Position numbers and translations under genes: made by a program. Below the pieces are notes generated by a model. It did no database searches. It had not been told where the DNA came from and was given only the letters and a program-made list of their open reading frames with translations. From the NCBI GenBank assembly GCA_951812955.1, contig OX638340.1, forward strand, positions 384,001 through 448,000: a DNA stretch of 64,000 bases. Reading direction: 5' to 3'. Source of the stretch: an uncultured Gemmatimonadota bacterium. GTDB lineage: Bacteria > JAAXHH01. Numbering within the stretch: the stretch's first letter is position 1; every line of letters begins with the position of its first letter. This document shows, piece after piece, positions 2,290 through 58,702 of the stretch.

Positions 2290-4233
2290 ATGCCAGAGGA
2301 CACACCGAAGACATCCGAGGTCGAGGAGACCGAGGAGTCTTCTTCACCCGTCCAGTCCGCGGAGGCGGCTAAAGAGGTATCCACGGAACCACCTGTGCCG
2401 GAAGCGGAGGCCGATGCGGCAGCGGAGTCACCCGTCGAATCGGAGACTGCCGTCGCGACTGAGACTGCCGTCGAAACGGAGCCCGTTCCCCCGAAGCGGC
2501 CCTTCAGGCTGCCCAAGTGGGTGGATGAGCAGGACCTGAATCAACAAGAACTCGAAGAATACGAGCAGATGTTCCAGATGTACGACGAGACCCTGAAGGA
2601 TATCGTGGAAGGCGAGATCGTTCCCGGCCACGTAATCGCTGTTGAGAACGGTGAAGTCATTATCGACGTAGGGTTCAAGTCGGAAGGCGCGATCTCGCTG
2701 TCCGAGTTCACCGACCCGGACGAGCTCGAAGTCGGCCAGAACATCGAGGTCTTCCTGGAGGATATCGAAGCCCAGGAAGGGCAGGTCGTACTGTCGAAAC
2801 AAAAAGCCGATTTCATGAAGGTGTGGGACAAGATCAAGGACGCCCACGAAGAAGGCGCCGTGGTGGAAGGTCAGATTCTGAGGCGCATCAAGGGCGGCCT
2901 GGTGGTCGATCTGTTCGGTGTGGACGCCTTCCTGCCCGGTTCCCAGGTGGCCCTGAAGCAGACGCCGAACCTGGACCAGTTTATCGGAGAAAAGCTTCCG
3001 TTCAAGATCATCAAGCTGAACAAGAGCCGCAGGAATATCGTAGTGTCGCGCCGCGTGGTGCTCGAGGTGGAGAAGGAGCGCCAGAAACAGGCCATCATCG
3101 CCGAACTGGACCGCGGACAGGTACGCAAGGGTGTGGTCAAAAACATCACGGATTTCGGCGCTTTCGTGGATTTGGGCGGCATCGACGGACTGCTGCACAT
3201 CACGGATATCTCGTGGGGACGCATCGGCCACCCTTCCGAACTGGTGACGATCGGCAGCGAGATTACCGTGGCCATCCTGGAATTCGACCGTGAACGGGAG
3301 CGCATCTCGCTCGGCCTCAAGCAGCTCGAGCCTTACCCGTGGGCGAACGTCGAGGAGAAATATCCTGTTGGTTCGAGAATCACCGGGCGGGTCGTCAGCA
3401 TCACCGACTACGGCGCCTTCGTGGAGCTCGAACGGGGCGTCGAGGGACTGATACACATCTCGGAAATGTCATGGACGAAGCACGTGACCCATCCGTCGAA
3501 GATGGTAACAGTCAACGAGAACGTGGACGCCGTCGTCCTCAAGGTGGATCAGCAGAACGAGAAGATCTCCCTGGGCATGAAACAGACCCAGCCGGACCCG
3601 TGGCAGTCACTCAACGACCGGTACACCGTGAATACCATGATCCGGGGGCGCGTGCGCAACATCACCGCGTTCGGCGCTTTCGTGGAAATCGAGGAGGGCA
3701 TCGACGGGTTGGTCCATATCTCCGACATGTCCTGGACGCGACGCATCAAACACCCGAGTGAAGTCGTCAAGAAGGGTGAGGAGATCGACGTCATGGTCCT
3801 CAACATCGATCCCGATGCCCGGCGCGTATCCCTCGGCATCAAGCAGGTCACCGAGGATCCCTGGCTTTCGCTTGCCGAGGTATACCCGGTAAACACCGAG
3901 ACGACGGGCGTCATCATCCGCCTGCTCGAACGGGGTGTGGTCGTGGAGCTTTCGCACGAAGTGGAGGGATTCGTCCCCATTTCGCAGCTCAATCATCCGG
4001 AAATCAAGCGACCGGGCGACGCTTTCAAGGAAGGCGAGGAGATTCCGCTTAAGGTCATCGAATTCGATGGGAAGAACCGCCGGGTCGTGCTGAGTGTCAA
4101 GGCTTACTTCCGCGATCGGGAGCGGGCCGAAATCGACGACTATCTGAGCAAACACCCCGTTGCGAGCACCGTGATCGGCGATGTGGTGGCGGTGGAAGAA
4201 AGCGCCGTGAGCTCGGAAGAGACGGACGGTTGA
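2290..4233 (+). CDS. rpsA: 30S ribosomal protein S1 with a ~80-aa acidic N-terminal extension
   Basis: 647 aa with six S1-domain repeats (GxV.GxVxxItdfGaFVdl...GLlHISe). RBS aaggagga lies upstream of the ATG. Confidence 0.9.
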   Translation: MPEDTPKTSEVEETEESSSPVQSAEAAKEVSTEPPVPEAEADAAAESPVESETAVATETAVETEPVPPKRPFRLPKWVDEQDLNQQELEEYEQMFQMYDETLKDIVEGEIVPGHVIAVENGEVIIDVGFKSEGAISLSEFTDPDELEVGQNIEVFLEDIEAQEGQVVLSKQKADFMKVWDKIKDAHEEGAVVEGQILRRIKGGLVVDLFGVDAFLPGSQVALKQTPNLDQFIGEKLPFKIIKLNKSRRNIVVSRRVVLEVEKERQKQAIIAELDRGQVRKGVVKNITDFGAFVDLGGIDGLLHITDISWGRIGHPSELVTIGSEITVAILEFDRERERISLGLKQLEPYPWANVEEKYPVGSRITGRVVSITDYGAFVELERGVEGLIHISEMSWTKHVTHPSKMVTVNENVDAVVLKVDQQNEKISLGMKQTQPDPWQSLNDRYTVNTMIRGRVRNITAFGAFVEIEEGIDGLVHISDMSWTRRIKHPSEVVKKGEEIDVMVLNIDPDARRVSLGIKQVTEDPWLSLAEVYPVNTETTGVIIRLLERGVVVELSHEVEGFVPISQLNHPEIKRPGDAFKEGEEIPLKVIEFDGKNRRVVLSVKAYFRDRERAEIDDYLSKHPVASTVIGDVVAVEESAVSSEETDG

Positions 4234-4243
4234 TCGCCGGCGC

Positions 4244-5731
4244 ATGACCCACGGGACAGAGGTTTCAGTGGCTCATCCGGCCGTGGCCTTGGCGGATGCT
4301 TCTCCGACGGTGGCCCTGCATACGCTCGGCTGCCGTCTGAATCAGTACGAGACCGAGGCCATTCGCGAACAGTTTGTTTCCCGGGGCTTTCGCGTCGTGC
4401 CCTTCAACGGTCCCGCGGATGTCTACGTCGTCAATACCTGCACGGTGACGAACCAGGCCGACGCGCGGGCCCGGCAGACGCTTCGCCGGGCCGTGCGTCG
4501 CCGGTCCGAGTCCATCGTCGTAGCGACGGGCTGTTACGCCCAGACTCATCCAGAACAGCTTCTGGCAATCGAAGGCGTTGACCTCGTCCTCGGCAACGCG
4601 GAGAAGGGCGGGCTCGTCGACCGCGTGCTGAGTTTGCGCGCGGACGATCCGCCTGTTTCCCAGGTGACGCGGCGGGCGGAGATGTCGCGATTCGACGAGC
4701 GTCTCGACGTTTTCGCCTTCGAGGACCGAACACGGGCTATGCTGAAGCTCCAGGATGGTTGCGACCAGTTCTGCTCGTTCTGCATCATACCCTGGGCCCG
4801 CGGCCGTCACCGCAGCCTGCCTCCGGACACCGCGCTGCGCCAGGTCCATTCCCTGATAGACAGAGGTTACGCCGAAATCGTACTCACTGGCGTTCACCTC
4901 GGTGAATACGGTACCGATCTGCCCACGCCCGTCACGCTAAATTCGGTCGTCCGTCAGATCCTGGAGCAGACCGGACTGCCCCGCCTGAGGTTGAGTTCTA
5001 TCTGGCCCACGGCGGTGAACCGGGAATTGATCGATCTGCTCGGGAACCACGCGCCGAGACTGTGCCGTTACACGCACCTGGCCGTGCAACATGGCGACGA
5101 CAGCCTGCTGCACGCCATGCGCAGGACGTATACGGCCGGTCAGGCCGAGGACGTGGTCTGCCGGCTCGTGGACGCGGTGCCCGATATCTGTATCGGCGCT
5201 GACATCATGGTCGGGTTCCCGGGGGAGACCGACGCCTCCTTCCAACGTATGTACGACTGGTTGGACCACCTTCCCTTCGCCTATTTCCACGTGTTTTCCT
5301 ATTCCAGGCGGGACCATACCCGGGCGGCACGCATGCCGGACCAGGTGCCCCCTTCGACGGCACGGGAACGCAGCCAGTTGCTTCGGACGTTGAGCGATCG
5401 GAAATCAGCGGCCTACCACAGCCGTTTCAGGGGCAGGGTCCTGCCCGTACTGGTCGAGGATGAATACAGTGGACCGCCTGGTCCGCCTGGTCCGCCTGGC
5501 CCGGACGGCCAGGTCGGCGCGCACAGTCCGGACGACCTGTCTGGCCCGCACAGTCCGACTGGCCCGCACGATCGGGGCATGACGGGGAGAACGGACCACG
5601 GTCTCAGATGCTGGTTCGATGGGCGGGCAGAGCAGGTGAACACCTTCGTCGAAATGGAAGTGTTGTCGACCGACGCCCGGGGTGCGGCCGGCAGGCTTAC
5701 GGAACCCGTCGACAACCCTGAAATGGATTGA
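4244..5731 (+). CDS. mtaB: Radical-SAM methylthiotransferase (MtaB/MiaB family) with a low-complexity insertion in the TRAM domain
   Basis: MTTase N-domain (LGCRLNQYETE). Radical-SAM core CxxxCxxC (DGCDQFCSFCIIPWARG). The C-terminal TRAM region is interrupted by GPPGPPGPPGPDGQVGAHSPDDLSGPHSPTGPH. Confidence 0.8.
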   Translation: MTHGTEVSVAHPAVALADASPTVALHTLGCRLNQYETEAIREQFVSRGFRVVPFNGPADVYVVNTCTVTNQADARARQTLRRAVRRRSESIVVATGCYAQTHPEQLLAIEGVDLVLGNAEKGGLVDRVLSLRADDPPVSQVTRRAEMSRFDERLDVFAFEDRTRAMLKLQDGCDQFCSFCIIPWARGRHRSLPPDTALRQVHSLIDRGYAEIVLTGVHLGEYGTDLPTPVTLNSVVRQILEQTGLPRLRLSSIWPTAVNRELIDLLGNHAPRLCRYTHLAVQHGDDSLLHAMRRTYTAGQAEDVVCRLVDAVPDICIGADIMVGFPGETDASFQRMYDWLDHLPFAYFHVFSYSRRDHTRAARMPDQVPPSTARERSQLLRTLSDRKSAAYHSRFRGRVLPVLVEDEYSGPPGPPGPPGPDGQVGAHSPDDLSGPHSPTGPHDRGMTGRTDHGLRCWFDGRAEQVNTFVEMEVLSTDARGAAGRLTEPVDNPEMD

Positions 5732-5773: not shown

Positions 5774-5847
5774 GCGCCAGTAGCTCAGCTGGATAGAGCG
5801 ACGGCCTCCGGAGCCGTAGGTCAGAGGTTCGAATCCTCTCTGGCGTA
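5774..5847 (+). tRNA. tRNA-Arg (anticodon CCG)
   Basis: Cloverleaf folded by hand. Acceptor GCGCCAG/CTGGCGT; D arm GCTC-AGCTGGATA-GAGC; anticodon stem ACGGC/GCCGT with loop CTCCGGA (anticodon CCG); T arm AGAGG-TTCGAAT-CCTCT; discriminator A. No encoded CCA. Confidence 0.85.
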
Positions 5848-5896
5848 TAACCCCCGCGGATCAGCCTTCTCTGGCGTATATCCCCGCGGATCAGCC
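5838..5896. repeat. Tandem direct repeat (29 + 28 bp) duplicating the tRNA 3' end (att-like)
   Basis: ctctggcgtataacccccgcggatcagcc (5838-5866, begins inside the tRNA) and ctctggcgtatatccccgcggatcagcc (5869-5896). Confidence 0.8.
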
Positions 5897-30167: not shown

Positions 30168-31694
30168 TTACTCGACGATCAGCCCGCCGTGCCGGGCGAC
30201 GAGTTGATTGAGGGAATGCAGGTAAGCCTGGATGCTTGCTTTCACCACGTCGGTATCCGAGGCGTGGCTGTTGAAGGACTGGTCGTGGAAACCCACGCTG
30301 AGCTGGACGTGGTGGGCGCCGTCCCGACCGTTCGACGAGGTCTGGATATCCTTGACGTAGGTCGGCAGCTTGGTGATCCGGTCGACGGCGTTCAGGGCGG
30401 CCAGAATCTGGTTGTCGCCCACGCCCCCTTCTTCGATCGTCTCGCCGCTTACGTGAAGCCTTACGCTCGCATCGGCCTGTCCGGAATGCGAAGAAGTCAC
30501 CCTGAAGTCCTCGAGCAGGTACTGTTCGGGCACTTCCACGGGCATGTCGGTGACGATCCGGTGGAGGTCCTCGTCCGCCACTTCTTTTTGCCGGTCCGCC
30601 ACGTTCAGAAAGCGTACATGGACCTTTTCGAATTCATCTTTCTGGTTTTCGTCGTATGTATAACCCAGCAATTCGAGCCGATGCCGCAGGGCATGCCTGC
30701 CGGATCTTGCCGTCAACACGATGTCGCTCTTCTCGATGCCCACGTCAGACGGGCTCATGATCTCGTAGTTTTCCCTGTGCTTGAGGAATCCATCCTGGTG
30801 TATTCCCGAGGAATGGGCGAAGGCGTTGCTGCCCACGATGGCCTTGTTGCGCTGCACGGGCATGTGCATCAGGTCGCGCACCAGCAGGCTCGTGGTATAG
30901 ATCTGCGTGGTCTCAATGCCGGTGCGCGCGTCGTAGAAATCTCCGCGCATCTTGACCGCCATGACGATCTCTTCCAGGGAAGCGTTGCCTGCCCGTTCGC
31001 CCACGCCGTTTATGGTGCATTCAATCTGGGTTGCGCCTGCCTTGATCGCAGCCAGGGAATTGGCGGTAGCCATCCCCAGGTCGTTGTGGCAGTGCACGCT
31101 GACCTTGGCTTTTCCGATGTTCGGCACGGTGGCGATGAGCCGGGAGATCAGGTTGCCCCACTGCTCCGGCACGGCGTATCCGACCGTATCTGGTATATTC
31201 ACCACTGTTGCGCCGGCGTCGATGACCGCCTCAACGGTCTCGCACAGGTAGTCGAAATCGCTCCGGGAGGCATCCTCGGTCGAGTACTCGATGTCTTCGC
31301 AAAGGTCCTTGGCAAACTTTACGGCGTCCACGCCCATGTCCATGATCTGCTGGCGGGACTTGCGGAATTTGTGCTTCAGGTGGGTGTCCGACGTGCCCAG
31401 AACGATGTGTATCCGGGGGCGTTTGGCCGGTTTTACGGCCTCGGCCACGGCCACGATGTCCGATTCCACCGCCCGTGCGAGGGCTGTGATTACCGGGCCT
31501 TCGACCTGCTCGGCGATGTTCTTAACCGCGGCGAAGTCGCCGGGCGAAGACGCGGCGAAACCGGCTTCGATCACGTCAACGCCGAGTTCGGCGAGCTGGT
31601 GCGCGACCTGGATCTTCTCGTCCCGGTTCAGCGAAGCGCCGGGGACCTGTTCACCGTCACGCAGGGTGGTGTCGAAGATGTCCACTTTTCGCAT
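30168..31694 (-). CDS. leuA: 2-isopropylmalate synthase
   Basis: 508 aa; MRKVDIFDTTLRDGEQ N-terminus, HCHNDLG motif, C-terminal LeuA dimerisation domain. Confidence 0.9.
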   Translation of the reverse strand: MRKVDIFDTTLRDGEQVPGASLNRDEKIQVAHQLAELGVDVIEAGFAASSPGDFAAVKNIAEQVEGPVITALARAVESDIVAVAEAVKPAKRPRIHIVLGTSDTHLKHKFRKSRQQIMDMGVDAVKFAKDLCEDIEYSTEDASRSDFDYLCETVEAVIDAGATVVNIPDTVGYAVPEQWGNLISRLIATVPNIGKAKVSVHCHNDLGMATANSLAAIKAGATQIECTINGVGERAGNASLEEIVMAVKMRGDFYDARTGIETTQIYTTSLLVRDLMHMPVQRNKAIVGSNAFAHSSGIHQDGFLKHRENYEIMSPSDVGIEKSDIVLTARSGRHALRHRLELLGYTYDENQKDEFEKVHVRFLNVADRQKEVADEDLHRIVTDMPVEVPEQYLLEDFRVTSSHSGQADASVRLHVSGETIEEGGVGDNQILAALNAVDRITKLPTYVKDIQTSSNGRDGAHHVQLSVGFHDQSFNSHASDTDVVKASIQAYLHSLNQLVARHGGLIVE

Positions 31695-31812
31695 CGCCGC
31701 GTGCTCCTGTTAACGGTCTGCGCCCGGTCGGCCTGGATGCCTGACCGGTTTACTTCGAGGCTGGGACGCACTGCCTTGATCGTTACGCTGCTTCTGTTTG
31801 AGGCAGTGACGC

Positions 31813-32808
31813 TTACTTCTTCTCTTCGATCCAGCTCATCATGCTGCGCAATTGACGTCCGACCTCCACGATCTTCTTCTCCGACGCATTGCGTCTGAGC
31901 GCGTGCATGACCGGGGCGTTGGCCTGGTTCTCGAGCATCCATTCCCGGGCGAAGGCGCCGGACTGGATCTCGGCGAGAATGCGTTTCATCTCGGCGCGGG
32001 TCTCTTCGTTTACGATCCGCGGACCGCGGGTCAGGTCGCCGAATTCGGCCGTGTTGCTGACGGAATAGCGCATGCCTTCTATGCCGCCCTCGTACATCAG
32101 GTCCACGATGAGCTTCAGTTCGTGGAGACACTCGAAGTAGGCGATTTCGGGTTGGTACCCGGCCTCGACCAGGGTCTCGAAACCGGCCATGACGAGTTCG
32201 GACGTTCCGCCGCAGAGCACGGACTGTTCACCGAACAGGTCGGTCTCGGTTTCTTCCCGGAAGGTCGTTTCGATGACGCCGCCGCGGGTGCCGCCGATGC
32301 CCTTGGCATAGGCCAGGCCGATATCCCGGGCTTTGCCCGTGTGGTTCTGGTTGACCGCGAGCAGGCAGGGTACGCCGCCGCCTTCCTCGAACACCCGGCG
32401 CACGAGATGCCCCGGCCCCTTGGGCGCGACCATGAAGACGTCCACGTTATCGGGCGGGACGACCTGGTTGAAATGGATGTTGAACCCGTGGGCGAAGGCG
32501 AGGGCGTTGCCCTCTACCAGGTTCGGCGCCACGTAATCGTTGAATAGACGCGACTGGAGTTCGTCGTTGACCAGCATCATGATAATGTCGGCTTCGGCGG
32601 CCGCTTGTTCCACGGTACGGGGCTCGAATCCGTCCTTGACGGCCTGATCCCACGAGCCACCCTTACGCAGTCCCACGATGACGTCCAGTCCGGAATCGCG
32701 TAGGGAAAGTGCGTGGGCGTGTCCCTGGCTGCCGTAACCGACAACCGCGATGGTCTTGCCGTCCAATATGCCCAGGTCGGCGTCCTGATCGTAATACAGT
32801 CGAGCCAT
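31813..32808 (-). CDS. ilvC: Ketol-acid reductoisomerase
   Basis: 331 aa; [17 protein letters not shown] Rossmann motif. RBS GAAGGAGAA. Confidence 0.95.
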
Positions 32809-32820
32809 TGGTTCTCCTTC

Positions 32821-32952
32821 GTGCCGGACCGGCGTTCAGGCGAGGTCGGCGGTGATCATTTGGCGTGCCAGACCGGCGTTCAGGCCGGGTCGGCGGTGAT
32901 CATTTGGCGTGCCGGTCCGGCGTTCAGGCCAGGTCGGCGGTGATCTTCTTGC
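32821..32952. repeat. 3 x 44-bp tandem repeat; copy 3 is the ilvN 3' coding end
   Basis: gtgccggaccggcgttcaggcgaggtcggcggtgatcatttggc / gtgccagaccggcgttcaggccgggtcggcggtgatcatttggc / gtgccggtccggcgttcaggccaggtcggcggtgatcttcttgc. Confidence 0.85.
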
Positions 32953-33484
32953 GTTCCTTCTCCCAGACGGGAAGCGGGGCTTCCGGCGACGGGGTATCCT
33001 TGCTCTGGGATTCACGGGCGAGCGCCACCCGGCCGGTCCGGGCGATTTCCCGCACGCCGAAGGGCCGCACCATGTTGATGATGGCGTCGATCTTGTCCTC
33101 GTTGCCCGTAGCCTCCAGCATGATCGTCTTCTGGTTTATATCGACGATCTTCGCCTTGAAGATGTCAGCGATCTGAACGAGTTCCTGCCGCGTGGACTGA
33201 CTGGCGTTTACCTTGATCAGGGCGAGTTCCCTGTTGATGAAATTCTCGCCGGTCAGATCTACGACCCGGATCACGTCCACCAGCCGGTTCAACTGCTTGA
33301 TGATCTGTTCGATGATCGCCTCGTCACCCTGGGTGACGATGGTCATGCGGGCCGTGCCGGGTTCCGCCGCTTCGCCGACGGCAATGCTGTCGATGTTGAA
33401 ACCCCGTCCGCTGAACAGCCCGGAAATACGGGCGAGGACCCCAAAACGGTTCTCGACCACCATGGATATGGTATGGCGTGCCAT
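32924..33484 (-). CDS. ilvN: Acetolactate synthase small (regulatory) subunit
   Basis: 186 aa; ACT domain ISMVVENRFGVLARISGLFSGRGFNIDSIAVG. Confidence 0.9.
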   Translation of the reverse strand: MARHTISMVVENRFGVLARISGLFSGRGFNIDSIAVGEAAEPGTARMTIVTQGDEAIIEQIIKQLNRLVDVIRVVDLTGENFINRELALIKVNASQSTRQELVQIADIFKAKIVDINQKTIMLEATGNEDKIDAIINMVRPFGVREIARTGRVALARESQSKDTPSPEAPLPVWEKERKKITADLA

Positions 33485-33560
33485 GGTACAGTAGACTCCC
33501 TGCCGGTATATCCTCCCGGCCTTTTACCGCCGGTAAATTCTCCCGGCCAGTTTTCCTCGC

Positions 33561-35333
33561 CTATTCCTCTATCATCTCGTGGGACGCCGCCCCCGCGGGG
33601 ATCATGGGATACACGTTGTCTTCTTCGGCGATCACCAGATCGAGCATCACGGGACGGTCCTTGACCTTGCTGGCCTCGAGCCAGGCGCCTTCAACGTCTT
33701 CATCCTTGAAGACCCGAATTCCCACGGCGCCGTAGGCCTCCGCCAGCTTCACGAAATCCGGGTTGGACTCGCGCAGGTCAACCTCCGAGTAGCGCCGCGC
33801 ATAGAACATGTCCTGCCACTGCCGCACCATGCCGAGAAATCCGTTGTTCAGCAGCACGATCTTGATCGGCAGCCTGCAGGCCACGGCCGTGGCCATTTCC
33901 TGGATATTCATCTGTATGCTGCCGTCGCCGGAAAACACGATGACCTCGCGATCCGGGAAAGCGAACTGGGCGCCGATCGCGGCGGGCAGTCCGAATCCCA
34001 TCGTACCGAGTCCGCCGGAGGTGACCATCGATCGGGGATTCGAGAAGCCGTACCACTGGGCCGCCCACATCTGGTGCTGGCCGACGTCGGTGACCACGAA
34101 GGCTTCGCCCTTCGTAAGCTGGCCGATCCGCTCGATGGCATACTGTGCACACAGCGGCAGATGGTCCGTGCCCTTCTCGACCGTCTCCCGGTCAACGCCC
34201 TCCAGGCCTTCCTCGTGTACACCGATCGTGTTCGCGTAGGTCAGCGGGTGGTCGCGTTTCCATTCGTCGATCAGCTGGAGCCACTCTTCCGTATCTGCAC
34301 GTTCAACCAGGGGAACCAACTGCTGCAGCACGTTCTTCACGTCGCCCACGATGGGCAGGTCCACCCGCACGTTCTTGTTGAGAGACGACGGGTCGATGTC
34401 GATGTGGATTTTCTTTGAATTGGGAGAAAATTCTTCCAGATTGCCGGTCACCCGGTCGTCGAAACGCGCGCCGATGCAGACCAGCAGGTCGCACATCATG
34501 ACGGCGGTGTTCGCGTACCACGTGCCGTGCATGCCGAGCATCTTCAGCGAAAGCGGATCGTTTTCGGGGAATGCGCCGAGTCCCATCAGCGTAGTCGTCA
34601 CCGGGGCGTTGAGCTTGCGGGCCAGCGCACGGACTTCCTCCGACGCCTCGGAGATGATCGCTCCACCGCCAACGTAGATCACCGGTCTGCTGGCCGAGGT
34701 GAGCATCTCCGCTGCCTTGCGGATCTGCCTCGGATGTCCCTCGGTGCGGGGCTTGTACCCGCGTATATCCGGTCTTTCGGGGTATGCGAACTCGGCGGTC
34801 CCGACTTGCACGTCCTTCGGTACGTCGATCAGGACGGGGCCGGGCCTTCCCGTGGTCGCGATATGAAATGCCTCGGCGAATACCTGCGCGATGTCTTCAG
34901 TTTCCTTGATGAGGAAGTTATGCTTCGTGATCGGCCGGGTGATGCCCACGGTGTCCGATTCCTGGAAGGCATCGTTTCCGATCAGGTGCACCGGTACCTG
35001 GCCCGTGATCACGATCATCGGGATCGAATCCATGTACGCGGTCGCGATGCCGGTTACCGTATTGGTGGCGCCCGGACCCGAAGAGACGAGCACCACGCCG
35101 GGTTTGCCGGTGGCCCGCGCATATCCGTCGGCCATATGGGTCGCGCCCTGCTCGTGCCGGACGAGGATATGCTTGAGCTCGGTGGTGCGCTGAATTACGT
35201 CATAGGTCGGGATCACAACGCCGCCGGGATAACCGAAAACGACATCGACGCCTTCCTGCTTCAGACACTCTATGACTATTTCCGCACCCGACAATTCCAT
35301 CGAACGTCTCCTTGTAAAACAGGCGTATTCCAC
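33561..35333 (-). CDS. ilvB: Acetolactate synthase large subunit
   Basis: 590 aa ThDP enzyme (GYPGG, GPGATN, GDGS motifs). Confidence 0.95.
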
Positions 35334-35610
35334 CCCGGACGTGATCTACCGTTCACGAAACCGGCTGTGATTTCGTCGTGTAGATAACCCAACTTGTGCT
35401 TCGTAAAATATGCCGAAGACGCCTGTTGTCAAGTTAAAACTCCAGATAAACCCCTTGACGAAACGTACCGTTTCCGTTATATGTTCTAGGCTTTGCGCCA
35501 GCGGTCGGATCCGCTGTCCGTTCGGCGTTTAGCCAGCACGATACACAGCGGTTTAAGGCGGTTTCTAACCGGCGAATTACTCGACGAAACTTCGCAGGAG
35601 GTCCGGGTCG

Positions 35611-36282
35611 ATGGCAAGAACGAGACGGCGCATCAGCCGTCGTGAAATGAAGGAAGACCGATTCATTCTCTGGCTGTACGAGTTGAGCAGCGAGATCGAC
35701 AAGCACTGGAAAACGCTCACGGCGGCTGCCGTCGCTGTGGTCGTCTGCGTGGCCGGCTGGTATTACTGGACAAACAAGCAGACCGATGACATAGTCGAGG
35801 CGGGACGGATACTCGCGCCGGGGCAGACGGCGATGCAGAATAATCGCTATGAAGACGCCATTCCCATGTTCGAGCGGGTCGTGAACGAATTCGGCGGGAC
35901 CGCTCTTGCCCTCGAGGCCACGATCGAACTGGCCAACGCTTGTTTCCAAGCCGGCGACGTTGAGAAGGCACGCACCTACTATCAAAAATACCTCGACGAA
36001 TACGGCAGTCAGAACGCGTATTTCTGGATGGCCGCACGCTCCGGCCTGGCCGCCTGTGACGAAGAGGAAGAGAAGTACGAGGAAGCGGCCAACCAGTATC
36101 TCGCCCTGGTGGACGAAGATCCGGACAGCTATCTCGCCCCCGGTTTTCTCCTGGATGCCGCTCGATGTTTCAGCGCCGCTGAACAGAAGGACCAGGCAAG
36201 GGCCCTGTACGACCGTGTGGTTGATACCTACGAATCCACGCCTTACGCCCGGGAAGCCCGGATCGCGTTGACCGCGCTCTAA
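35611..36282 (+). CDS. Membrane-anchored TPR-like protein (YfgM/YbgF-like)
   Basis: 223 aa. One N-terminal TM segment, then TPR-like helical repeats. Confidence 0.6.
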   Translation: MARTRRRISRREMKEDRFILWLYELSSEIDKHWKTLTAAAVAVVVCVAGWYYWTNKQTDDIVEAGRILAPGQTAMQNNRYEDAIPMFERVVNEFGGTALALEATIELANACFQAGDVEKARTYYQKYLDEYGSQNAYFWMAARSGLAACDEEEEKYEEAANQYLALVDEDPDSYLAPGFLLDAARCFSAAEQKDQARALYDRVVDTYESTPYAREARIALTAL

Positions 36283-36385
36283 TCGACCGCATTCCAGTTG
36301 ACTGCGTCCTAGTTGCCCGCGTTCCAGCGGAGATCGCGTGGTCCGAACGCACCCCTCGCGTTGACTGCGCGCTAACGGAGATCGC

Positions 36386-37525
36386 GTGAAGGTTACCAAC
36401 TTCGCCCCCGGCCCCACACCGGTTCCGGATCGAGTCGTCCGAAAGATGTCGGAACCGGTCCTCACCCACCGATCCAGTGAATTCAGCGGCCTGCTGAGAC
36501 AAGTCACGTCGGGACTGCAGCACGTTTTCCAGACAGAGAACGATGTGCTCGTACTTACGGCCTCCGGCAGCGGCGCCATGGAAGCCGCCGTCGTCAACCT
36601 GCTGTCGCCGGGAGACCGCGTACTGGCGATCAGCGGAGGCAAATTCGGTAGTAGATGGGTCGAACTGTGCGAGACCTTCGGCCTGGACGCCCTGACCTTA
36701 GACGTGGCGTGGGGAAAGGCCGCCGATCCGGATGAAATCGACCGGATCCTGGCTGAGCGGGGACCCTTCGAGGCCGTGCTGGCCACCCATAGCGAAACAT
36801 CGACCGGCGTGCTGCACGACATCGAGGCCCTGGGGAATGTCGTTCGCGGTCACGGCTGCTATTTTGTCGTGGACGCAATCAGTGGACTCGGGGCCAACGA
36901 GCTGAAGACGGACGAATGGCACGTCGACGTGGCCCTGACGGGATCGCAGAAAGCGCTCATGGTCCCGCCCGGCCTCGCCTTTATCAGCGTCAGCGAACGG
37001 GCATGGAAGGGTATAGAGAGAAACACTCTCCCGTCCTATTATCTCAATCTGAAACGGGCCAGAGATTCCTTCTCTAAGGGGCTCACGCCCTATACGCCCG
37101 CCGTTTCGCTGCTCATGGGACTGGCCGAGTCACTGAGGATGATGAAGGAACTCGGACTGGAAGATATCTACCGGATTCACGAAAGAAACGCCCTGGTGAC
37201 CCGTGCGGGCGTCGCTGCGCTCGGGCTGAGGGTTTTCGCCCAGCGCCCTTCCAACGTACTGACTTCCGTATCCATGCCGCCCGGCATCGACGGCTCCGAG
37301 CTGCTGAAGACGATCAAACAGGATTGCGGCGTGACTATCGCCAACGGAATGGAGCACTTCAGGGGCAAATACATCCGCATCGCCCACCTGGGCTACGACA
37401 TCGCCCCTTCGGACATGCTGGTTGCGCTATCGGCACTCGAGCACGGCCTGAGCCGCCACGGGTACGCGTTCGAATCCGGCGCGGGTATCGCCGCGGCACA
37501 GCGGGTGATCCTCGAGACGGGGTAA
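36386..37525 (+). CDS. Class V aminotransferase (serine-pyruvate / phosphoserine aminotransferase-like)
   Basis: 379 aa. FAPGPTPVP start. PLP-lysine region VDVALTGSQKALMVPPGL. Confidence 0.8.
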   Translation: MKVTNFAPGPTPVPDRVVRKMSEPVLTHRSSEFSGLLRQVTSGLQHVFQTENDVLVLTASGSGAMEAAVVNLLSPGDRVLAISGGKFGSRWVELCETFGLDALTLDVAWGKAADPDEIDRILAERGPFEAVLATHSETSTGVLHDIEALGNVVRGHGCYFVVDAISGLGANELKTDEWHVDVALTGSQKALMVPPGLAFISVSERAWKGIERNTLPSYYLNLKRARDSFSKGLTPYTPAVSLLMGLAESLRMMKELGLEDIYRIHERNALVTRAGVAALGLRVFAQRPSNVLTSVSMPPGIDGSELLKTIKQDCGVTIANGMEHFRGKYIRIAHLGYDIAPSDMLVALSALEHGLSRHGYAFESGAGIAAAQRVILETG

Positions 37526-53063: not shown

Positions 53064-53127
53064 CGATTTCCTCCGATTACTAAGTTTGGTAAAACATGCC
53101 ATTCATCCGTAGGGATGCGCACGTCCA

Positions 53128-53215
53128 GACCAGAACGAATGCGCACATCACGTCCAGTACGGATGCTTCATCATGATCGGAACGGTTACGCACATCACGT
53201 CCAGTTCGTGTACGG
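53128..53215. repeat. ~25-29-bp degenerate tandem repeat x3 (gcgcaca(t)cacgtccagt(a/t)cg)
   Basis: gcgcacgtccagaccagaacgaat / gcgcacatcacgtccagtacggatgc / gcacatcacgtccagttcgtgtacgg. Between the lipoprotein start and the aldo/keto reductase stop. Confidence 0.6.
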
Positions 53216-56811: not shown

Positions 56812-57768
56812 TCAATCGCGCAGCTCCGCCCGGATGCGGTCGGCCAGCCTCATCGTCTCCACAGCCTCCTCCAGCCCCGCCGCGGGCAGATCCACGGGCC
56901 GGTCCTCCTTGATGCAGTCGATGAGGAAGCGGGCCTGTTCGGCCGTTCCGGCGGATTCCACCGTGTCGAGCACTTCTTCTTTGCCGTCCCGCTGTACCAC
57001 TGCTCTCTTCACGCCTTCCAGGTAGGCCGAACAGTCCCTGCCGTGGATTTCATAGCGCTCCAGGCGGGCGTCCGTCGTGAAATTGGCTGTGAGCTGGGCC
57101 ACGCACCCATTTTCGAATCGTAAGAGCGCCGCGTAGACGTCGACATATCGAGAATGAGCCCTGCGGGCGACGGCATGGACTTCGGCGATGGGAGAACTGC
57201 CCGCCAGGGACCGGGTCAGGTCGATGGCGTGGATCGGCGTCTCGTAGATGAAGTTGTCCAGCAGATGGTCTGGGAAGGGCCGTTCACGCAGGCGCGTCAT
57301 GCTCTTGTGAAATTCCGCCACGATCTGGGTGACGGGTCCCCGCTCCTCGATCATGCCTCGGGCCTTGCAGATCAGGGAATGGAACCGGCGGTTCCAGCCG
57401 ACCAGCACCTTCGCTCCGGATGCGTTGGCGGCGTCGCGGAGCCCCTCGGCTTCCGCGCCCGACAGGCCGGGCGGCTTTTCAATGAGCGCGTGCACACCGG
57501 CCTGTATGACGGGCAGCGCGCATTGGCCGTTCAGGTGGGCCGGCGTCGCGACTACCGCCAGGTCCAGATCTTCCATCGACAGCATGTCCTCGATATCTTC
57601 GTATCGCCGCGGGACTGCGTTTTCCTCAGCCACCCGGTCGCGCAGTTCCTTCACCGGATCGCACACGGCCACGAACCGCAGGTCGTCGAAGGTCTTCATG
57701 GTCTCGAGATGACCGCGACCCCGCCCTCCGCATCCGATCAGGGCGGCTTTTAAGACTGTTTCCGGCAT
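56812..57768 (-). CDS. Gfo/Idh/MocA-family NAD(P)-dependent oxidoreductase
   Basis: LKAALIGCGGRGRGH Rossmann start. ATG 57768 with GGAG upstream preferred over the track TTG start at 57831. Confidence 0.75.
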   Translation of the reverse strand: MPETVLKAALIGCGGRGRGHLETMKTFDDLRFVAVCDPVKELRDRVAEENAVPRRYEDIEDMLSMEDLDLAVVATPAHLNGQCALPVIQAGVHALIEKPPGLSGAEAEGLRDAANASGAKVLVGWNRRFHSLICKARGMIEERGPVTQIVAEFHKSMTRLRERPFPDHLLDNFIYETPIHAIDLTRSLAGSSPIAEVHAVARRAHSRYVDVYAALLRFENGCVAQLTANFTTDARLERYEIHGRDCSAYLEGVKRAVVQRDGKEEVLDTVESAGTAEQARFLIDCIKEDRPVDLPAAGLEEAVETMRLADRIRAELRD

Positions 57769-57847
57769 TTGGGTTGCTCCGGTTGCGGTGGTGAGCATCC
57801 TCTGCGAAGCGTATATTACTATAAGTTGCAATCACCACGGTATATTG

Positions 57848-57911
57848 CTTGACGCGTGCAATGCTAGACGCGTGCAATGATTGACGCATGCTTTGCTTGA
57901 CGCGTGCAATG
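57848..57911. repeat. 4 x 16-bp tandem direct repeat cTTGACGCGTGCAATG in the divergent intergenic region
   Basis: cttgacgcgtgcaatg / ctagacgcgtgcaatg / attgacgcatgctttg / cttgacgcgtgcaatg. Each unit contains the ACGCGT palindrome and a TTGAC(G) -35-like hexamer. Confidence 0.8.
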
Positions 57912-57964
57912 TATCGCCATTTCTTCTGCAAGTAAACCCACCATTATCGAACGGTGATTCCTGC

Positions 57965-58702
57965 ATGCTGGATCTCGACTTTTTCAGGCAAAACGGATAC
58001 GTCAACCTCGGCCGGGTTTTCGTTGGCGAGGAATTGAACCGTTTTGTCGAACTGTACGACCAGGACCGGTCGAATCGGGGTTGCTTCTGGCATCCCATTT
58101 CCAATCACGGCCACCAGACCCTGAACTGCGAGCCCCTGATCTCCTCGCCGGAGATCGACGGACTGATCCGCCACCCCAAGTTAATCAAACCGATCGAGAC
58201 CATTTTCCAGGGCCCCAGCTGTCTCGGTGAAGTCTGCCTGCGCCACATGGTCCCGCGCGACGGCGAACCGGAGGAGATCTGGCACCGGGACCGGCCGCAT
58301 GCGAAGGACCGGCCCTACCGGTGCGGCTTCCTGCAGATGATGCTCTACCTGACCGACGTGCACGAGGGCACGCACTGCTTTTCAATCTCTCCCGAGCCCT
58401 GCGACGGTCCTGTGCTCGATACAAAAGAGCAGCTCGACCAGCGGGGCGCGGTCCATCTGCACGGACCGGCCGGTACCGTCATTCTCTTCAACCTTTCCGT
58501 GCTGCACGCCGCAACGGTTCGGATCACCCCGCACGAACGCAAGACCGTCCAGATCTACTACGGCCATCGCGATGGTCCTGTGCTGAGCGACTGTACTTTG
58601 ATTCCCACTAGTTTCTGGCGGGACCATCCCGACCCCGAGGTGCGGGGTTTCTACGGCCTGATGACCAGCCGTTCCAGGCAATATGCCGAGGCCTTTGGCT
58701 GA
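57965..58702 (+). CDS. PhyH-family Fe(II)/2-oxoglutarate dioxygenase
   Basis: HxD...H pattern (WHRDRPHAKD...HEGTHC...VLHAA). Alternative start at 57881 would lie inside repeat unit 3. Confidence 0.7.
   Translation: MLDLDFFRQNGYVNLGRVFVGEELNRFVELYDQDRSNRGCFWHPISNHGHQTLNCEPLISSPEIDGLIRHPKLIKPIETIFQGPSCLGEVCLRHMVPRDGEPEEIWHRDRPHAKDRPYRCGFLQMMLYLTDVHEGTHCFSISPEPCDGPVLDTKEQLDQRGAVHLHGPAGTVILFNLSVLHAATVRITPHERKTVQIYYGHRDGPVLSDCTLIPTSFWRDHPDPEVRGFYGLMTSRSRQYAEAFG

Follow-up and report, generated by a model that had tools for sequence, protein, structure and literature searches.

We consider it likely that the repeat found between ilvN and ilvC in the window (the whole 64-kb stretch of DNA analysed here) is a lineage-specific, hypervariable 44-bp minisatellite (VNTR), which extends from the 3' end of ilvN into the ilvN-ilvC spacer and evolves in a near-neutral manner. 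The first-pass annotation had proposed that the repeat could be either a slippage or duplication scar or a cis-regulatory module that tunes ilvC translation relative to ilvBN. The former view is now well supported by a copy number of 1-4 that varies even among near-identical strains, by private substitutions common to the units of a genome, and by two neighbouring junctions of the operon that behave alike.

The 44-nt array at the ilvN-ilvC junction

The gene cluster runs in the order ilvB-ilvN-ilvC-leuA-leuB, all on the minus strand, and NCBIfam equivalog matches bear out the earlier identification of ilvN and ilvC (Table 1). On the minus strand, positions 32822-32953 consist of three head-to-tail 44-nt units, both by direct reading and by TRF (period 44, 2.9 copies, 92% matches, score 224). 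This array is the strongest tandem repeat of the 64-kb window, the runner-up having a TRF score of 106, and a 31-nt unit pattern was matched three times in the window and not once in 100 shuffles. The three tandem 44-bp units that had been reported between the two genes are thus confirmed, but their description as copies of the last 44 nt of ilvN was wrong: 30 nt come from ilvN, whose last nine codons and stop codon form the first 30 nt of unit 1, and the other 14 nt are spacer, including a small GC hairpin.

Unit 1, the coding copy, is made up of CGC AAG AAG ATC ACC GCC GAC CTG GCC TGA followed by ACGCCGGACCGGCA; it encodes the IlvN C-terminus RKKITADLA, with the TGA stop at 32926-32924, and the sequence immediately 5' of it on the minus strand is ...GAGAAGGAA. 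The three units can be told apart from one another at 3-6 differing positions. The AAG-to-ATG change ascribed earlier to the two extra copies is present in both of them (units 2 and 3), not as an isolated event but as one of three clustered substitutions that convert CGCAAGAAG into CGCCAAATG. Unit 3 is followed on its 3' side by CGAAGGAGAACCA and then by the ilvC ATG at 32808.

Table 1 Positions, strands and supporting evidence for features of the ilvN-ilvC junction and the adjoining spacers.
Feature	Position in the window	Strand	Sequence, evidence or remark
ilvN (acetolactate synthase small subunit, 186 aa)	32924..33484	-	NCBIfam NF008864, 227 bits; TIGR00119, 200 bits
ilvC (ketol-acid reductoisomerase, 331 aa)	31813..32808	-	NCBIfam NF004017, 553 bits
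ilvC Shine-Dalgarno (SD) sequence GAAGGAG	32814..32820	-	anti-SD duplex -9.3 kcal/mol
Repeat unit 1 (coding copy)	32910..32953	-	CGCAAGAAGATCACCGCCGACCTGGCCTGAACGCCGGACCGGCA; sequence, TRF, unit parsing
Repeat unit 2 (non-coding)	32866..32909	-	CGCCAAATGATCACCGCCGACCCGGCCTGAACGCCGGTCTGGCA; head CGCCAAATG; CCG replaces the CTG Leu codon
Repeat unit 3 (non-coding)	32822..32865	-	CGCCAAATGATCACCGCCGACCTCGCCTGAACGCCGGTCCGGCA; head CGCCAAATG; CTC replaces CTG
Mini-ORF 1, MITADPA + TGA	32880..32903	-	ATGATCACCGCCGACCCGGCCTGA; start 20 nt past the ilvN stop
Mini-ORF 2, MITADLA + TGA	32836..32859	-	ATGATCACCGCCGACCTCGCCTGA; stop 27 nt before the ilvC ATG
ilvB-ilvN spacer array, two ~27-nt units	33495..33548	-	GGCCGGGAGRATWTACCGGC...; 5-bp hairpin each; last unit adjoins the ilvN SD (AGGGAG)
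ilvC-leuA spacer	31695..31812	-	118 nt here; 23-169 nt in relatives

The family profile of ilvN stops near residue 161, and the PVWEKERKKITADLA tail beyond it is a clade-specific extension, conserved in the 21 relatives described below (L001-L021), whose last nine codons are the part copied by the 44-bp repeat. This C-terminal extension of IlvN measures about 25 residues (approximately 162-186; window 32924-32998) and is kept down to relatives with 79% identity. Every extra unit lies 3' of the ilvN stop codon, leaving the sequence of the IlvN protein unaltered; the lengths of IlvN and IlvC are invariant, with IlvC measuring 331 aa in 21/21 relatives. Read-through of the ilvN TGA into an extended protein was considered and rejected, as a further in-frame TGA follows eight codons on.

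Copy number among relatives and history of the array

Relatives were collected by an IlvN scan of one genome per species, which yielded 21 close relatives at 79-100% protein identity. These are labelled in the records as Gemmatimonadota/Gemmatimonadetes or Candidatus Latescibacterota MAGs, their isolate names suggest an origin in sponge or coral metagenomes, and several of them are single-contig chromosomes of 3.7-3.97 Mb. Among these 21 related genomes and nine metagenome contigs, the ilvN-ilvC junction carried 1, 2, 3 or 4 units: four in L001 and L006, three in L002 and L004, and two in L003 and L005, the counts for L002, L004, L005 and L006 being those of single-contig chromosome assemblies. 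In L007, L008 and L010-L015 the coding unit was accompanied by one more or less degenerate unit, with a 10-nt insertion in one linker of most of these genomes (not L012). Only the coding unit was present in L009 and L016-L019, whose spacers measure 27-37 nt and whose ilvC SD and start context match those of the multi-unit genomes. The spacers of L020 and L021, the most distant of the 21 relatives, were unrelated; that of L021 has a small, unrelated direct repeat of its own at about 545-587 (CCGAYCAAACTG twice). A comparison of spacers in relatives had been proposed in the first-pass annotation, for which absence of the repeat from close relatives, with no difference in expression, would speak against a regulatory role; at the level of sequence, the repeat is indeed absent from L009 and L016-L019.

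Variation was also seen between strains. In short-read assemblies, which can collapse tandem repeats, contigs encoding the exact IlvN of the window had two (L109), three (L111) or four units (L110, L112 and L113), and a metagenome scan added another four-unit contig (L086) and a broken contig (L085). The flanks of the three-unit L111 and the four-unit L086 differed at 12/3200 positions (99.6% identity). Given the single-contig chromosomes, counts of two to four units are real states. Three independent short-read metagenome contigs (L085, L114 and L115) end inside or at the 44-bp array, so that the repeat fragments assemblies of this lineage.

In an NJ tree built from 1,490 nt of ilvN and ilvC coding flanks, the single-unit L016-L019 fell outside a crown clade in which all genomes but L009 have at least two units. 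Most crown-clade genomes, among them the window, L001, L002, L003, L005, L006 and L010, have an extra unit marked by CCG in place of the Leu codon. Together, the single-unit outgroups and the common CCG variant make one founding duplication, at the root of the crown clade, the simplest history. We infer from the unit sequences and the tree that a single tandem duplication of the last nine ilvN codons, the TGA and the small GC hairpin founded the array in an ancestor, and that replication slippage or unequal recombination between similar units would then have added or removed copies and sometimes homogenised them with the coding copy, a turnover which the palindromes may favour.

Several arrays carry marks of such rearrangement. 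In L006, units 2 and 4 are identical with a degenerate unit 3 between them, which indicates an 88-bp higher-order duplication; L007 and L008 have two linker types in reversed order; L012 shows an internal partial deletion; and L009 has lost its extra unit and returned to one. Moreover, private changes are common to all units of a genome, with GCA in 3/3 units of L004, AAGCAG in both units of L003 and AGGAAG in every unit of L005 and L006. This within-genome sharing of private substitutions, which includes the coding copy, is concerted evolution.

The origin of the first duplication was also considered. In single-unit genomes the best 14-mer self-matches reached 9-10/14, at offsets of 41-56 nt and not 44, a level equalled by mononucleotide shuffles in 36-77% of trials. 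Seeding by microhomology between the purine-rich Lys-Lys codons and an ilvC SD some 44 nt away is thus at chance level and unsupported. A general phenomenon of ilvN ends was rejected as well, since direct repeats of 20 nt or longer were absent from the ilvN-ilvC junctions of 15 distant lineages (46-60% IlvN identity).

Neighbouring junctions, hairpins and candidate functions

Local repeats were also present at the two junctions that flank ilvN-ilvC in the operon. Each unit of the ilvB-ilvN spacer consists of a hairpin (GGCCGGGAGRATWTACCGGC) and an A-rich linker, in an array that TRF did not report. Two units are found in the window, three in the L001 group and one in many relatives (range 0-3), and four genomes (L009, L011, L012 and L014) lack them and have a 14-nt spacer. 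In the sequences of L001-L017 this site is at about 2900-3000. The hairpin measures 5-8 bp, has a predicted energy of -7 to -16 kcal/mol and sits 1 nt 5' of the ilvN SD. A compensatory double change (GCCGG/CCGGC to GCCAG/CTGGC) preserves the stem in L005 and L010; pairing was judged by folding each sequence singly rather than by counting covariation, since the register of the MAFFT alignment is off by one in several rows. The ilvC-leuA spacer of relatives carries independent tandem duplications (L003, L005, L008, L014 and L015), such as three perfect 35-nt units running from the ilvC stop in L003 and a duplicated leuA SD block (GCGCAGACCGTAAACAGGAGCATGC) in L005. Local tandem duplication at three successive junctions points to a mutational property of GC-rich, CCGG-palindromic spacers rather than to a module dedicated to ilvC. 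At about 590-770 in L003, at or just past the 3' end of ilvB, we also observed an array with a period of about 12-14 nt (GTAAGACAGCCGAA-like) that was not seen in the other relatives.

At the ilvN-ilvC junction, each unit ends in 11 nt that fold into a triloop hairpin with a 4-bp stem (GCCG-NNN-CGGC, about -5 kcal/mol). The hairpin of unit 3 (GCCG-GTC-CGGC) ends 3-4 nt 5' of the ilvC SD, as it also does in the single-unit outgroups, and in L007 and L009 a hairpin is kept via a different 5' arm. The combination of hairpin plus SD therefore looks like a maintained design of the ilvB-ilvN and ilvN-ilvC junctions. As the SD-adjacent hairpin is kept in relatives, a portion of each unit may act as functional RNA; the 44-nt duplication simply multiplies the hairpin along with the ilvN tail. 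The core of the ilvC SD (AAGGAGAA) is invariant in 18 aligned close relatives, irrespective of copy number, and with its SD and start context fixed past the last unit, ilvC is expected to initiate independently.

These observations bear on an alternative that we regard as unlikely, in which the array is a copy-number-tunable intercistronic module, retained by selection, whose number of units sets ilvC expression relative to ilvBN. Possible routes would be mRNA processing or stability, through the added GC hairpins, or an uncoupling of ilvC translation from that of ilvN. Retention of the array speaks for such a module: at least two units are kept in 15/16 crown-clade species and in every strain-level contig despite fast change in copy number, and if copy number drifted neutrally, with one unit as an absorbing state, the array should have been lost more often, so that retention may hint at weak selection or at a bias towards expansion. 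As a counter to this argument, the units of L007-L015 are by now divergent and probably frozen. Spacer sequence of the L008-L015 subclade, minus the SD, diverges at 0.116 per site, under the rate of 0.194 at four-fold degenerate sites, a slower divergence that would fit selection on the module and that could equally reflect ordinary intergenic constraint or conversion by the coding copy, which is itself under selection. The retention of a hairpin immediately 5' to the SD at two junctions, accompanied by a compensatory change at ilvB-ilvN, would also suit a module of this kind, as would the predicted ability of palindromes of different units to pair in an 11-bp long-range stem.

Folding and sequence signals argue in the opposite direction. 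The minimum free energy (MFE) of the 201-nt junction in the window was no better than that of shuffles (z = 0.03), and spacer folding across the 21 relatives was inconsistent (z from -2.4 to +1.7). The spacer contained no sigma-70-like promoter, the sole promoter-like site being upstream of ilvB; no intrinsic terminator was found on the minus strand of 31600-35600, and the Rfam 15 covariance models gave no match at E<=1 on either strand of 31500-35700. The structured spacer or cis-regulatory module envisaged in the first-pass annotation is thus unsupported. Predicted energies for opening the ilvC region from SD to start ranged from 5 to 12 kcal/mol in natural variants, with no trend over one to four units, and an in silico series of one to five of the window's own units shifted this energy by only about 2.5 kcal/mol. 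Further against a tunable module, five species (the outgroups L016-L019 and the crown-clade L009) keep the same ilvC SD with just one unit, the sequences of unit 3 in L006 and of the units in L007-L015 decay freely, and like duplications strike other spacers at unrelated sequences, as a mutational process predicts. We therefore retain the near-neutral minisatellite as the best explanation, the array itself being probably neutral or nearly so to judge from these comparisons.

A broader version, to which we give little credence, would make the operon spacers selected "rheostats", with slippage varying the IlvBN:IlvC, IlvB:IlvN and IlvC:LeuA ratios in a symbiont population while the proteins stay unchanged; each unit would add a GC hairpin and, in the species group of the window, a re-initiation ORF. 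If true, this would extend contingency-locus logic to operon stoichiometry instead of on/off surface antigens. If cistron ratios were tuned by copy number, slippage-prone repeats would be put to a novel use, which nothing found here supports.

The two 7-codon mini-ORFs described earlier, MITADPA and MITADLA, are present by direct reading. They would have arisen when the clustered CGCAAGAAG to CGCCAAATG substitution took place in one extra unit that was then duplicated. That they serve as functional uORFs or "stepping stones", re-initiation at successive ATGs restoring coupling to ilvC across the lengthened spacer, is in our view very improbable. The stops and next starts along ilvN, mini-ORF 1, mini-ORF 2 and ilvC are regularly spaced (20, 20 and 27 nt), the ATG-bearing unit was itself duplicated and is present in the window, L002 and all L001-group contigs, and the idea of short ORFs that hand ribosomes on to a gene downstream is documented in the review PMC12548453. 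Yet the ATG is confined to this nearest species group (the window, the L001 group and L002), and all other multi-unit genomes, L003-L015, have AAG, CAG, TGG or similar at this position; even in the three- and four-unit arrays of the L001 group (L001/L110, L111, L112, L113 and L086) the unit closest to ilvC has AAG, which would break the relay. Neither mini-ORF has an SD: scored against a generic anti-SD sequence, their starts gave duplexes of -4.1 (MITADPA) and -2.7 kcal/mol (MITADLA) versus -9.3 kcal/mol for ilvC, which has a strong SD of its own, and -6.6 to -10.3 kcal/mol across ilvN, ilvC, leuA and leuB. Moreover, the peptides lack the run of Ile, Val or Leu of ilv leader peptides. With neither SD nor conservation, the uORF regulation of ilvC raised by the first-pass annotation was rejected; the mini-ORFs are recent and incidental, probably poorly translated or untranslated, and should not be called genes in annotation.

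Least credible of all is that mis-assembly produced the three units from a true repeat that is shorter or longer, for although assemblers struggle in the array, where the three short-read contigs stop, the window's units are told apart by their 3-6 differences and independent assemblies, single-contig chromosomes included, have 2-4 units at the same site.

Related repeat systems and other features of the window

The closest known kind of element is the bacterial VNTR or minisatellite. Such loci evolve by slipped-strand mispairing, as exemplified by the tandem-repeat loci of M. tuberculosis (PMC12817950) and by variation in the 16S-23S spacer of C. difficile (PMC3090617). The ilvN-ilvC array resembles them in its head-to-tail units of tens of bases (period 44), in its intergenic position with a copy number that differs between close strains and species (1-4), and in the homogenisation of units within a genome seen in the private changes of L003-L006. 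It differs in the make-up of its 44-bp unit, which combines a hairpin with the 3' end and stop codon of an essential biosynthetic gene, and in its host, an uncultured lineage labelled Gemmatimonadota or Latescibacterota.

The nearest special case is that of MIRUs, which also place tandem units with short ORFs between operon genes. MIRUs are tandem units of 40-100 bp in operon spacers, with variable copy number and co-oriented short ORFs; they are dispersed and apparently mobile, and a -4 nt overlap couples the ORF within them to the start codon downstream (PMC12548453, citing Supply et al. 1997). The 44-bp array likewise sits in an intergenic spacer inside an operon, but its unit copies local sequence and occupies one locus only, as far as the 64-kb window and the metagenome scan extend, and its mini-ORFs lie 20-27 nt from neighbouring stops and starts, show no -4 nt coupling and are missing in most relatives.

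Dispersal was assessed directly. The 64-kb window held no further copies of the unit; the palindrome GCCGGNCCGGC had two matches there, both inside the array, and CGCCGGNNYGGCA had four, three of them in the array. Scanning the metagenome with a 19-base core returned 28 matches, two of which were related, both at ilvN-ilvC junctions, and the other 26/28 were single chance matches in unrelated contexts. A dispersed element such as a MIRU, REP or MITE was accordingly rejected, unit and palindrome being confined to one locus in the window and the metagenome scan.

REP/BIME sequences form a high-copy dispersed palindrome family of enterobacterial intercistronic regions, often in alternating orientation. 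They share with the array GC-rich palindromes between cistrons and the potential for mRNA hairpins; in contrast, the palindrome GCCGGNCCGGC is found only in the array within the 64 kb, in direct copies. The ilv/leu attenuators, such as the leaders of E. coli ilvGMEDA and ilvBN, lie upstream of the first gene and combine runs of regulatory amino acids with terminator/antiterminator hairpins. Short ORFs in a branched-chain amino-acid operon are common to both, whereas the mini-ORFs described here are operon-internal, contain one Ile and at most one Leu, have no terminator downstream and are not conserved.

The biological import of the array, as found, is little. Its interest is mainly evolutionary, as a clear case of a tandem duplication that took in the last codons and stop of a gene, undergoes concerted evolution with the coding copy and yields start codons and tiny ORFs de novo. 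The array and the two neighbouring junction arrays could also serve as a VNTR marker for strain typing in this uncultured lineage.

Some additional features were observed in the window. The ilvB ORF as listed, with 590 aa from a GTG at 35333, probably includes 11 codons too many (window 35298-35333): in relatives the call is 579 aa, the family profile begins near residue 12 and an AAGGAG lies 7 nt before 35300. About 100 nt upstream, a promoter-like TTGACA-16-TATTTT (35405-35432, minus strand) would leave a leader of about 100 nt, and directly upstream of this promoter region lies a 462-aa ORF (35434-36822, minus strand) with no NCBIfam match at E<=0.001. Modest TRF repeats were reported at 53113-53204, 5470-5557 and 5837-5896 (as listed, period 24 x3.9 with 65% matches; periods 9 and 27; period 30 x2). 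Finally, a tandem array of four 16-bp units (TGCTTGACGCGTGCAA-like) at 57846-57911, scored 97 by TRF, lies between two apparently divergent ORFs (56812-57831, minus strand; 57881-58702, plus strand), and these units might be repeated operator or promoter elements.
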